A stretch of DNA of 64,000 nt, taken from a virus (Duplodnaviria; Caudoviricetes). Where the stretch lies: the IMG/VR virus record IMGVR_UViG_3300028048_000038, positions 345,538 to 409,537 of that record. One strand, given 5' to 3'. Below, piece by piece: positions 43,284 to 47,117 of the stretch (within the stretch, counting starts at the first letter, position 1; each line of letters begins with the position of its first letter). The notes under the pieces are model-generated. The model ran no database searches. It saw only the letters and a list, made by a program, of their open reading frames with translations, and had not been told where the DNA came from. Made by a program: the position numbers and the translations under genes.

Positions 43284-44144
43284 ATGGTAATTGCATTCTG
43301 CGGTAGGATGAGGAGTGGCAAGACTGAGTTAGCCAAGATATGTGAAAAATATGGTTATGAAAGAATATATTTCGCATTGCCACTAAAACAGTTATGTGCT
43401 GACATATTAAATGTTTCCATTGATGGGCTTAATGATGCCAAGAACAAGAATATAGACATAGGATTATTATTGGATGATGATATTTGTTCAATACTTTCTG
43501 AAGAGACACAAATACCGATAGAACAAGTAAAAGAAACATGTCATGGGAAGACCATGCACAATGTAAGAGAAATGCTTCAGTTTATTGGTACTGACTTGAT
43601 AAGGAAGTATAATACAGATTGGCACGTAAATCGAATACGTGAAATGATTGATAAGGAAAAGAATTATGTTATCGATGATGTAAGATTTCCAAATGAAAAG
43701 GCTTTGGTAGAGGAACTTGGTGGCGATTGTTGGTTTATCACACGCACAACCCTCGATAATGTCTCAAATCATGAATCTGAGACATCTATAACATGGAATG
43801 ATTGCTGGAATAAAATTATTGTAAATGACTCTACATTACCTATTTTACAGTTTAAGTGGGAAACTTTCATGGATAATTACGGAGTGTCTTGCGCCATTAG
43901 GGATAAAGAATTTGATAGAATATTGGAAGATGGTTCTGAGAATGTAATAACACCATTATCCATTCATGATATGATGATGCTATCAAAATCCTTATTCACA
44001 TATGCTAAAAAAGATATAGATAAAGACAAAGTTAGCAAGATATCAATGAATGAGGATAAAACAGTATTCATCACATATACAGATGATACCATAGAAGTAC
44101 TCGATAACGCTTTACAGATAGAGGACATAAAAGTATTGATTTAA
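43284..44144 (+). CDS. Deoxynucleoside monophosphate kinase (T4 gp1-like)
   Basis: GRMRSGKT, FALPLK, REMLQFIGTD..R, IDDVRFPNE, HESE. Confidence 0.85.
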   Translation: MVIAFCGRMRSGKTELAKICEKYGYERIYFALPLKQLCADILNVSIDGLNDAKNKNIDIGLLLDDDICSILSEETQIPIEQVKETCHGKTMHNVREMLQFIGTDLIRKYNTDWHVNRIREMIDKEKNYVIDDVRFPNEKALVEELGGDCWFITRTTLDNVSNHESETSITWNDCWNKIIVNDSTLPILQFKWETFMDNYGVSCAIRDKEFDRILEDGSENVITPLSIHDMMMLSKSLFTYAKKDIDKDKVSKISMNEDKTVFITYTDDTIEVLDNALQIEDIKVLI

Positions 44145-44212
44145 CTTTTTTTAAAGAGTTTAATTTGGTAAATACGATTATTTTCAATATCTTTGCCAAA
44201 ATATAAAATTAT

Positions 44213-44841
44213 ATGAATAATAAAGTAGATTTTAAATATGAAGATGGGTCGGAGGTATTTTTTACCTCCGACACGTAGTTACGCACTTTGGGCATTCAAA
44301 CATCCTTAAGTTTTGTGACCGTCCCTTCAAGGACGTTGAGGAAATGGACTACAAACTTATCGATAATTGGAACAAAAAAGTTCCACCATCTGGACTTGTA
44401 TTCCACCTCGGTGACTTTGCTTGGGGTGGAGGTTATGAAGGATGGAAAAAGATTAGGGAACAGCTAAACGGAGATATCATACTGATTGAAGGGAATCATG
44501 ACCGTAAAAATCTTACAACAACAGCTCGTGAAGAGTTGTTTAAGTATGTTACATGGCAGATGCTGATTGAAATTGAAGGAAGAAAGGTTTTGCTTAACCA
44601 CTTCCCATTCCTTTGTTATGCTGGTGTATATCGTGAACCAAAGAAACTAGTGTATTCCCTTTACGGGCACGTACACAGTGGACCAGATAAGAAAGGACAA
44701 GACATACCAAGGCTTGTACATTGTTTCCCAACACAATATGATGTTGGTGTGGATAATAACAACTACGAACCAATATCATGGTACGAGGTAAACGAGAAAA
44801 TACAAAAACAACTATTGAAGAGCAAGTATAATGTCAAGTAG
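44213..44841 (+). CDS. Calcineurin-like metallophosphoesterase whose frame is broken by an 8-nt gap (44276-44283) inside the DxH motif; 206 aa if the gap is skipped
   Basis: Frame 1 reads MNNKVDFKYEDGSEVFFTSDT-TAG; frame 2 reads T-HFGHSNILKFCDRPF...HLGDF...GNHD...HFP...GHVH...DVGVD. Confidence 0.85.
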
Positions 44842-45187
44842 AAAACAAATATATATTGATACCATTACACGTGAGTTTATTAAATTTGCTAAGATAATTG
44901 GAATATTCCAAAGTATATGTTTTCATTTCAGAAATTATACTAGGTTTGAACTTCCTAATGAAAGAGCAATAACGTATTTTAGGAAGCACTCATTCTATGA
45001 GTATGCAAGACGAGAAGGACGGTACTACCTAACGCTGAATGATAACTTGATTAAGTATGTGTATTTATTTTCAAATAAATGGTTTTATAAAGGTGATAAG
45101 TTTGAAAATGCCAATGAACTTGTTGACTTATTTCTATCTCACTTGAAAGATAAGGGATACTTAAGATACATAAAAATAATACATTAA
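44831..45187 (+). CDS. Hypothetical protein (paralogue of the next gene)
   Basis: EFIKFAKIIG...LFLSHLKDK. Confidence 0.55.
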   Translation: MSSRKQIYIDTITREFIKFAKIIGIFQSICFHFRNYTRFELPNERAITYFRKHSFYEYARREGRYYLTLNDNLIKYVYLFSNKWFYKGDKFENANELVDLFLSHLKDKGYLRYIKIIH

Positions 45188-45223
45188 TAACAATAATTTA
45201 GAACCCCCTAGCATTATGAAAAC

Positions 45224-45622
45224 ATGAGGTGGATAAATAAACCTAGAAAGAAGACTAGAAGGGAGATTGTGCTAGAGTACATTAAGTTTATAAAGATTAT
45301 GGGTTACTACGATTCGTTAACTCATTTCATGTATTCTCTTGCAAGAAGAAAATGTGTGATAGTTTATTCGGACAATGGCTTCAAGAAAAAATATAGCCTA
45401 TCGGATGTCATTTCTCATAATCAAGTTATGATTAACTACTTTGAATATATTCTTTCAACGTGTGGCAGTAGTATCAGACGATGGGTGATTAAAGAACATT
45501 TCATTTGCAGACCATTACAATCAAAGCTGCATGGCTATATGGAAGTGGAAGCCTTAACAAACCTTCTAATGTCTTATTTCAAGGATAAACATATTGACAA
45601 TTGCATAATTGTTGACAATTGA
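45224..45622 (+). CDS. Hypothetical protein (paralogue of the previous gene)
   Basis: EYIKFIKIMG...LLMSYFKDK. Confidence 0.55.
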   Translation: MRWINKPRKKTRREIVLEYIKFIKIMGYYDSLTHFMYSLARRKCVIVYSDNGFKKKYSLSDVISHNQVMINYFEYILSTCGSSIRRWVIKEHFICRPLQSKLHGYMEVEALTNLLMSYFKDKHIDNCIIVDN

Positions 45623-45650: not shown

Positions 45651-46778
45651 ATGATATTGTGTATTGGAGATTTACATGGTAGAACGTTTTGGAAAAAGGC
45701 TGTCGAAGATAACATAGATAAGGTTGATAAAATCATCTTTATCGGTGATTACTTAGACCCATATCCATTTGAGGGTATCACTAGAAAAGACGCAATAAGG
45801 AACTTCCAAGAGGTGATTGAGTTTAAACGAGGTAGTCCAGAAAAGGTGACACTTTTATTGGGTAATCATAAATTTATTTCATTTAAACTTTAAATTCTCA
45901 CTATGGCGAAAGAAAGTTCAAAAAGTTTAATGAAATACTTTGTGCTCTTGATGAGAAATCATCAAGCGAAAACTAGGCTAATTGCTGGAAACCCCTTAGA
46001 GCCTTAACTACTCTCTTATGGTAGTAATACGCATAAGAAACCTATGGTAATGCGTAGGGTATAGTGAAAATGTTAAGGATTGGGAAATCTACTAAAAGCA
46101 GCGAAGCATCCCACGTGGATGTGTGCTCATCGACTATCGCTGAAATGCGAGTACACTCAAGTGAGTGGAAATGCCTAGCCCCTAACGTGTAATGACGAGG
46201 GTGTTGATATAGTCAATTCTCATAGGAAACCTATGAGCAGTCTTATAAAGACGAACTGAATGTAACGAATTCAGTTGAATACAAAGGATTTGCCTTATAT
46301 CGATAAACGTAACTTTGATTCAAGGTCGAGATATGATTCTAGTAATGCATATCACATTGAGGAAATGTTTCGTTCACATCGTTCACTCTTTCAATTAGCA
46401 CATGAAGAACTTATAAGTGATAAGAGATATCTTTTCACACATGCTGGATTACAGAAAGGTTGGTACGATAACAATAAGAAAATAATTGGTGAACTAACAG
46501 TTGAAAATTTAAATAAACTATTGGATGTACCATACGGGATAAGGTCTTTATGTGAAGCTTCTTGGTTAAGAGGTGGAACAGACCAATACGGCAGCATTGT
46601 ATGGAATGATTTGAGAGACATGCATTCTAGGGTAAATCAAGACATACCTTGGGATTATCAAATATTTGGTCATACGATGCTAGATGATGAGCATCCATTG
46701 ATAACCAAGCAATTCGCTTGTATAGATTGTCAGAAGGCGATAATAATAAACGATGATGGAGGATTTGTTGAATGCTAG
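45651..46778 (+). CDS. Metallophosphoesterase split by a group I intron (exons 45651-45869 and 46287-46778; 236 aa spliced)
   Basis: IGDLHG...IGDYLD...LLGNH | DLPY...FTHAG...QIFGHT; splicing restores GNHD in frame. Confidence 0.88.
45870..46286 (+). mobile_element. ORF-less group I intron, 417 nt, IA-like
   Basis: Exon ends in U and intron ends in G; P1 CATAAA/TTTGTG with a U.G pair; P element AATTGCTGGAAA (45980); P3 CTAGGC/GCCTAG; P7 GACTAT (46132)/ATAGTC (46209); two extra hairpins after P7; P9 CTCATAG-GAAA-CCTATGAG. Confidence 0.9.
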
Positions 46779-46918
46779 GAATTGGCCCAAAGGAATTGCC
46801 AGAGGAACAAGGGAGATATGCGTATGAACTTCTTAAGAAACTTAAGGAAGTGAAGGTACTTGATGATGATGAGGAAAACTTTTATAACTTTTTAAAAAAG
46901 AAATATGAAAAAGAGTAA
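46772..46918 (+). CDS. Small hypothetical protein (48 aa, not in ORF track)
   Basis: MLGIGPKELPEEQGRYAYELLKKLKEV...; overlaps both neighbours. Confidence 0.45.
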   Translation: MLGIGPKELPEEQGRYAYELLKKLKEVKVLDDDEENFYNFLKKKYEKE

Positions 46919-47117
46919 ACCTACAAAGAGCACGGAACAGTATAAGATACTGAGAATGATTAGCCGTGATGAACAAATAGAACGTAATGGAGGCGGTCAA
47001 TTTGTTTCAATGAATCGTGTCTATAAGGACAAAAGTAAGTACAACCGTAATGATAATAAGAAAGAGTTTAGGAACGACCTAAACTCTATTTTTTTGCTTT
47101 TAAATTTGGAATTTTAA
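46905..47117 (+). CDS. Small basic protein, candidate ArfA/BrfA-like ribosome rescue factor
   Basis: RVYKDKSKYNR basic motif, hydrophobic tail, terminator inside the ORF. Confidence 0.45.
   Translation: MKKSKPTKSTEQYKILRMISRDEQIERNGGGQFVSMNRVYKDKSKYNRNDNKKEFRNDLNSIFLLLNLEF
47063..47095 (+). terminator. Intrinsic terminator located before the stop codon of ORF 46905-47117
   Basis: AGAGTTTAGG-AACGA-CCTAAACTCT-A-T7. Confidence 0.8.

Follow-up and report, generated by a model that had tools for sequence, protein, structure and literature searches.

The locus examined here raises the question of how a phage could make a phosphoesterase from a gene whose first metal-binding motif, DxH, is broken before its His by a stop codon and a change of reading frame. 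The gene lies in a stretch of 64,000 nucleotides (the window), which is the end part of a complete virus record of 409,537 bp (IMGVR_UViG_3300028048_000038). The genome, which has a terminase and 46 tRNA calls, is described as that of a rumen jumbo phage, and the virus is seen in runs from bovine and goat gut. Where a first-pass annotation had called a host-type promoter, a promoter-like pair is found by pattern match, which we take to be of the Bacteroidetes type. This pattern, the best matches of the phage helicase (Bacteroides phages) and the commonest hosts of chromosomal phosphoesterase homologues (Bacteroidales) suggest a Bacteroidales host. The genetic code of the genome is standard; a reassignment of TAG was rejected because reading TAG as sense raises coding density no more than reading TGA as sense does. 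Outside the window, ARAGORN reports a tRNA with the anticodon CUA (genome C1 136577-136653, minus strand), though TAG is read as stop, and a tRNA-Thr with the AGT anticodon is called at 148088 of the same genome.

The first-pass annotation had proposed that the ribosome hops from one ACG codon to a second one. The elements that it had described lie where it had placed them (ATG 44213, a reading that ends ...VFFTSDT, ACG at 44273 and 44281, TAG at 44276), and skipping 8 nt does yield a protein of 206 aa (Table 1). The DxH, GD, GNHD, H and GHxH motifs of the calcineurin-like metallophosphoesterases are all found in this joined reading, as SDTH, GD, GNHD, NH and HGHxH, and the Met at 44344 is internal to it.

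Table 1. Features of the interrupted phosphoesterase gene, in positions of the window
Feature	Position	Strand	Remark
68-nt intergenic region after dNMP kinase gene	44145..44212	+	No homing endonuclease; relatives have a LAGLIDADG gene at the same position
Promoter-like pair TTTG-20 nt-TATCTTTG (TAnnTTTG)	44164..44195	+	Pattern match, putative
ORF1, 21 codons, end TAG	44213..44278	+	First core strand and Asp of DxH
Hairpin, 10 bp, 5-nt loop	44248..44272	+	Dual-coding (S-E-V-F-F-T-S-D); last base abuts take-off codon
Take-off codon ACG (Thr21)	44273..44275	+	
Untranslated gap	44276..44280	+	Begins with stop TAG
Landing codon ACG	44281..44283	+	
ORF2, 185 codons, calcineurin-like phosphoesterase (Aquifex aq_1665-like)	44284..44841	+	Resumes at His22

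The two parts correspond to one conserved protein. ORF1 aligns to residues 1-21 of intact 206-aa homologues, and the phosphoesterase matches Pfam PF12850/PF00149, phrog_547 and the structure 1XM7. An intact close relative was modelled with a pLDDT of 94.9, and its best structural match is again 1XM7 (the Aquifex aq_1665 fold); in this model, the first part is what supplies the core strand and Asp20. Across 98 homologues, His22 is invariant and Asp20 nearly so. The substitution test proposed for either side of the gap, carried out on 21 alleles of the window's clade whose pairs are not independent, points to purifying selection on both, with pN 0.088 vs. pS 0.341 for the nine codons before the hairpin and pN 0.110 vs. 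pS 0.755 for the 20 codons from the landing site to the first Met. The pattern reverses in shifted frames. This selection on both sides therefore argues that both parts are translated, in the frames that a hop would join. The product, whose junction peptide is predicted to end ...FFTSDTHFGHSNILK, is a putative calcineurin-like phosphoesterase, and its enzyme activity we infer.

The 8 nt are present in contigs from the probable source run X1 and from two other studies, the latter spanning them without gaps. A contig from X3 covers 43914-45416 with 40 substitutions and 0 gaps relative to the window, and one from X5 covers 43900-44472 with 1 substitution and 0 gaps. Assembly error was rejected on the strength of these other studies' contigs and of the 60 alleles described below. 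The comparison concerns assembled contigs, beneath which minor RNA or DNA variants are possible; at this level, a joint with the 8 nt deleted was not found in any run. The X2 RNA contigs break at the 5′ end of the hairpin (again at contig level only), and a single RNA-library contig keeps the insert, with only 28 letters 5′ of it, and may be DNA. A genome-wide scan for a strong hairpin, a codon, a stop, a matched codon and a long open frame returned 10 candidates, among which, by eye, only the phosphoesterase site joins two parts of one protein; the scan thus gave no convincing second element in this genome.

The insert is far from a singleton. A first protein search returned three further interrupted genes, which skip 8, 6 and 5 nt. 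Scanning for patterns, looking up proteins and searching with the endonuclease encoded next door brought the family to 60 distinct alleles, from phage-like contigs of gut and other origin, in which the same DxH motif is broken by 5-14 nt. About two thirds of them were found by a pattern demanding the hairpin and ACN-TA, that is, a Thr codon. Most per-allele measurements refer to 58 of the 60, a curated list that was preferred to a stricter re-count, in which true alleles were missed and two false ones admitted. The distance from take-off to landing is 5 nt in 21 alleles, 6 in six, 7 in three, 8 in 18, 9 in two, 10 in six, 12 in one and 14 in three, leaving 2-11 nt between the codons. Rejoining always occurs at D-x-H, and all three frames are used (0, +1 and +2 in 9, 9 and 40 of the 58). 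A stop directly follows the take-off codon in every allele (TAG 36, TAA 21, TGA 1 among the 58); this was partly built into the search patterns, and it holds also for all 18 alleles found without a stop-containing pattern. Downstream, the frames are whole and the catalytic motifs are kept, down to 38% identity.

The first-pass annotation had named uninterrupted homologues and a singleton insert as signs of a recent mutation. Uninterrupted alleles are indeed the majority, some up to 93% identical to interrupted ones, while the layout of matched codons, stop and gap is conserved across about 60 alleles. One candidate allele, P0120, was discarded as not of the interrupted kind, and four N-truncated distant proteins resolved into two interrupted alleles, one intact allele with a late start call and one uninformative case. 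The element occurs once per genome, at one motif. The hairpin pattern had no match in 185,579 prokaryote genomes, no interrupted allele was found among the best 80 homologues in prokaryote genomes, and no such element was found in cultured phages. In the allele L011, a 14-nt bypass insert is accompanied by an apparent group I intron further into the same gene.

The landing codon encodes the take-off residue in 54 of the 60 alleles, as in the window with its ACG/ACG pair. Residues other than Thr are matched too: Leu is followed by Leu (CTG-stop-CTG) on two different hairpins, one in L244 and the other in L121 and L250, and in L272 (CAT-TAG-CAT) take-off is at a His one codon later, landing is at a His, and the hairpin is extended, so that its end is shifted by 3 nt as well and again abuts the take-off codon. 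No other single observation argues as strongly for a fixed ribosomal geometry as this coupled shift. A permutation test of residue matching gives p 4e-5 on 41 allele types, which are not independent of each other. The six unmatched landings (ATG twice, ATT twice, GCT twice) each differ by one transition, in the first or second codon position, and a G.U pair with the anticodon of tRNA-Thr remains; L026, otherwise near-identical to the window, is one that has ATG. An exact third-base (G-to-G) rule held in 31 types and was abandoned when freshwater-type alleles broke it; in L254, for instance, ACG is followed by ACT. In many gaps, AGGT abuts the landing codon; gaps of 2-5 nt are too short to hold a mini Shine-Dalgarno some 6 nt ahead of landing.

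The 10-bp hairpin of the window is present as first described, with a predicted fold of −17.1 kcal/mol (z −6.6). In 57 of the 58 alleles, 0 nt separate the hairpin end from the take-off codon, and in the remaining one, 1 nt. The covariation anticipated among alleles was found: there are 12 distinct 10-bp versions, in which pairs 4, 7 and 10 change on both sides and 99% of cells remain paired, and stem pair 6 varies between A-U and G-U. The covariation score was reached by 0 of 500 shuffles, although related sequences can inflate such scores. Because about two thirds of the family were found with a hairpin-requiring pattern, we put weight on the 18 found by protein or endonuclease search, all of which have the hairpin. 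Among intact alleles, 1 of 117 reaches −15 kcal/mol at the same position and two come close, and the E/G/D-V residues that the stem imposes occur in 0 of about 107 intact close proteins. A pattern made of the 3′ arm alone also matches genes with paired 5′ arms, some of them 16-18-bp structures in other reading frames, all ending at the Asp codon. In the intact alleles L007, L131 and L152, an AU-richer hairpin of 11-13 bp occupies this position. On the tree, two of them (L007 and L131) fall together with L121, and this suggests precursors, or precise losses, of the gap. A take-off stem-loop enclosing the take-off codon and stop is absent from the window's fold; a 5-bp one is formed by the three 14-nt alleles only. 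The mini-hairpin CGT-AGTT-ACG that had been drawn over the gap does not appear in the predicted folds and is not conserved in other alleles.

On these grounds, we consider it likely that the gene is read by a programmed short ribosomal bypass driven by the hairpin. The ribosome would read 21 codons and pause with UAG in the A site and its peptidyl-tRNA-Thr paired to ACG. A ribosome covers roughly ten bases 5′ of the P site, and because the hairpin ends at the P-site codon, its 3′ arm would lie inside the ribosome, in the mRNA exit path, and the stem could zip up only as the ribosome slides forward. The slide needed to close the stem, about ten bases, would fit skips of 5-14 nt, after which the peptidyl-tRNA would re-pair at the matched landing codon. 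Caveats are the six unmatched landings in 60, the looseness of third-base matching and the few intact alleles that have a hairpin in the same position; moreover, the matching codons could partly stem from an origin by duplication. The phosphoesterase gene looks dispensable or replaceable, so a low efficiency of bypassing might be tolerated. The core of the first-pass reading, a bypass that would rebuild DxH, thus came through the sequence tests proposed with it (contigs, homologues, covariation and substitutions). Its suggested tie to release-factor or tRNA status found no support, and no release-factor gene was found in the genome. The hop, the push by the hairpin and the endonuclease target considered next are what we infer.

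Why such an insert should exist is suggested by its neighbours. A LAGLIDADG gene lies directly upstream of 16 of 45 interrupted vs. 3 of 135 intact alleles (Fisher p 1e-8, uncorrected); corrected for kinship, the link comes down to about 3 vs. 1 independent pairs (p 0.6), which are too few. The encoded protein has two motifs and a C-terminal helix-turn-helix, and the end of its gene often overlaps the phosphoesterase start; no homologue was found in the window's genome. The three intact carriers have Val or Ile for the Thr before SD (FVSD/FISD), a position that is non-Thr in 4 of 114 non-carriers. Endonuclease-bearing intact alleles with FISD or FVSD are L002, L003, L111 and L268, one beyond the three counted, and FVSD is found in 19 of 107 close intact proteins; this recoding is probably a second route to immunity. 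No carrier of the closest endonucleases (L263-L275) has a plain F-T-S-D-x-H allele, and more distant carriers can have one (L319). Three distant LAGLIDADG carriers (L277:1979, L278:1972 and L279:2001) have a 1-nt insert in the same phosphoesterase (TTT-C, after the Phe codon that follows DxH) in a +1 frameshift layout, and in L279 an extended hairpin ends at the shift site. Elsewhere (L300-L317), a related LAGLIDADG gene is followed by one that resembles polynucleotide kinase. In one frame, the P-loop of the latter gives ...CRGLQ-stop-QGSGKST, which may be a further hop (Gln-stop-Gln) in a second target gene. The upstream slot of the phosphoesterase holds other endonuclease-like genes (GIY-YIG; NUMOD3-bearing) in L001, L072, L086 and L039, and these accompany interrupted as well as intact alleles.

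A tree of the C-terminal part alone requires 26 changes of element state, 15 of them forced by strong branches; near-identical proteins occur in both states, and gains and losses are indistinguishable. This patchy spread, as read from the sequences, fits a mobile cassette. Compared with L073, an intact allele, the window shows near identity as far as the 5′ edge of the hairpin and then diverges for about 120 nt, which suggests a replaced patch. In relatives, an endonuclease gene stands next to its presumed, altered target and the alteration is patchy among close kin, as in a homing cassette. We think it likely that the insert arose as protection from the endonuclease: a LAGLIDADG homing cassette would be directed at the conserved DNA that encodes F-T-S-D-x-H, and the insert would be the part by which it protects itself, adding foreign bases to the target and leaving the protein unchanged. 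The window's phage would have kept the bypass allele while lacking the endonuclease. About 800 nt downstream, a second phosphoesterase (45651-46778, plus strand) has an intron at 45870-46286, after the His of GNHD; this is 417 nt long, group I-like, without an ORF and with G as its last base, and its removal restores a whole 236-aa frame. It is mostly absent from the relatives L067-L072 and is also absent from one X5 contig. Beyond it lies an ORF for a basic protein of 70 aa (46905-47117, plus strand) with no Pfam match at E 1.

The main rival, termination followed by reinitiation, so that a 21-aa peptide and a separately started C-terminal part form a split enzyme, appears improbable to us. 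Overlaps such as TA/ACT and TA/GTG resemble stop-start junctions, the window's landing ACG is itself a near-cognate start, an in-frame start codon follows the stop in nine of the 58 alleles (GTG 6, ATG 2, TTG 1), and split phage enzymes are known with MobA and MobE insertions (10.1101/2022.08.31.505936). However, in 49 of the 58 alleles neither ATG nor GTG nor TTG occurs from the stop to the His, 43 lack even a near-cognate start, and the commonest landing triplet is ACT; judging from the model of the intact relative, a core strand and a metal ligand would have to come from the 21-aa peptide, and the Leu/Leu and His/His matching and the fixed position of the hairpin would be left unexplained. 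Still less probable is the inactivation of these alleles by a cassette that knocks the gene out to escape cutting, with the hairpin as a DNA-level signal. Intact alleles being the majority and a second phosphoesterase lying downstream would suit it; against it stand the intact downstream frames and motifs, the strong purifying selection in 20 codons that only a join would let be translated, the G.T pairs at stem position 6, which suit RNA, and the hairpin end that follows the take-off codon in L272.

Removal of the insert from the RNA, for which a cut-and-ligate system of the phage or its host would have to recognise the hairpin, could draw on the conserved RNA structure beside the break and on the introns of these phages, such as that in the neighbouring phosphoesterase. 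Yet 2-11 nt are too short for self-splicing, 17 of the 58 junctions are without any G, splicing needs no matching of codons in frame, and, as weaker evidence, the runs hold no 8-nt joint and the RNA-library contig keeps the insert; we regard this explanation as very unlikely. A group I intron, with its catalytic core, U.G 5′ site and terminal G, does not fit the site itself, where no Rfam match was found and the gap is 2-11 nt. We give equally little credence to an ordinary −1/+1 frameshift, or readthrough by the putative CUA tRNA, with extra residues in DxH. In the window, no stop closes the −1 frame across the hairpin, which has a run of T as its loop, and 40 of the 58 alleles need the −1 frame, but the other 18 need frame 0 or +1; the product would carry 2-5 unconserved residues between D and the invariant His22, TAA and TGA alleles occur, and the genetic code of the genome is standard.

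The bypass reading has a precedent in gene 60 and mobA of T4 (10.1101/2022.08.31.505936; 10.1101/2024.12.09.627546), to which the phosphoesterase bypass with its homing cassette would be the counterpart; in T4, the insert that is bypassed prevents MobA from nicking and persists after MobA is gone (10.1101/2022.08.31.505936). Both have matched codons, a stop in the A site, a frame-independent gap and a 5′ stem-loop. However, gene 60 is a topoisomerase gene with a skip of about 50 nt, against a phosphoesterase with 5-14 nt, and its 5′ stem-loop lies 9 nt from take-off and is not conserved across clades, whereas here the distance is 0 nt and the hairpin conserved. The take-off stem-loop of gene 60 has no conserved equivalent here, nor does its mini Shine-Dalgarno, and in the phosphoesterase alleles some 20-28 codons of nascent peptide show no conserved signal; the ORF1 peptides differ widely between lineages except for FTSD. 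Sequence homology with gene 60 is not expected. The mobA family consists of a MobA-type endonuclease in a topoisomerase II large-subunit gene, so that a LAGLIDADG gene with a phosphoesterase is not a member.

Other relatives in kind are few. In the terminase of the Streptomyces phage phiHau3, two 10-nt inserts are proposed to be bypassed (PMC10732093); these too are short frame-breaking inserts in a phage gene, but their A-site codon is UUA, a rare sense codon, and a regulatory role is proposed for them, whereas the phosphoesterase alleles have a stop codon there, inserts of variable length, a covarying hairpin and a homing endonuclease. In E. coli, synthetic stop hops read 9 nt for one residue, and a 2016 review knew of no natural stop hop (PMC5009743). 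The six 6-nt alleles share this synthetic layout (ACC-TAG-ACT, ACT-TGA-ACT, CTG-stop-CTG, CAT-TAG-CAT) and would be natural candidates, with a stimulator. The same review lists the byps of Magnusiomyces mitochondria (27-55 nt) and an unconfirmed 29-nt hop in an adhesin gene of Prevotella loescheii, which belongs to the likely host group of the window's phage. The byps likewise are mobile inserts skipped in translation that tolerate imperfect matches, but they use unused codons and a relaxed mitochondrial ribosome at many sites, unlike an element at one motif, once per genome. A literature search, beyond whose reach most subscription literature lay, found no report of a phosphoesterase bypass element.

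Few cases of natural programmed bypassing are known, i.e., T4 gene 60 with its topoisomerase homologues, the yeast mitochondrial byps and the Streptomyces phage candidate. To these, the present family would add a minimal design in about 60 natural variants that bring their own controls, with eight skip lengths, three take-off residues, compensated hairpins and intact alleles that are near-identical. The proposal that forward sliding is driven by the pairing of mRNA as it leaves the ribosome (10.1101/2024.12.09.627546) thereby becomes directly testable, and the family offers candidates for the natural in-frame stop hop absent from the 2016 review (PMC5009743). Gene callers truncate such interrupted genes. 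A joint reading of mechanism and origin, for and against which we see the balance as even, is that a portable element of about 35 nt (a hairpin abutting the P-site codon, a stop and a matched codon) may suffice for efficient bypass on Bacteroidetes ribosomes, needing neither a nascent-peptide nor a take-off-hairpin signal, and that one LAGLIDADG family may protect its target, a single motif, by several fixes: recoding of amino acids, stop hops in frame, hops of 5-14 nt and +1 frameshifts over 1 nt. Thus, next to introns and inteins, translational repair would give homing elements a third general means of altering essential motifs.
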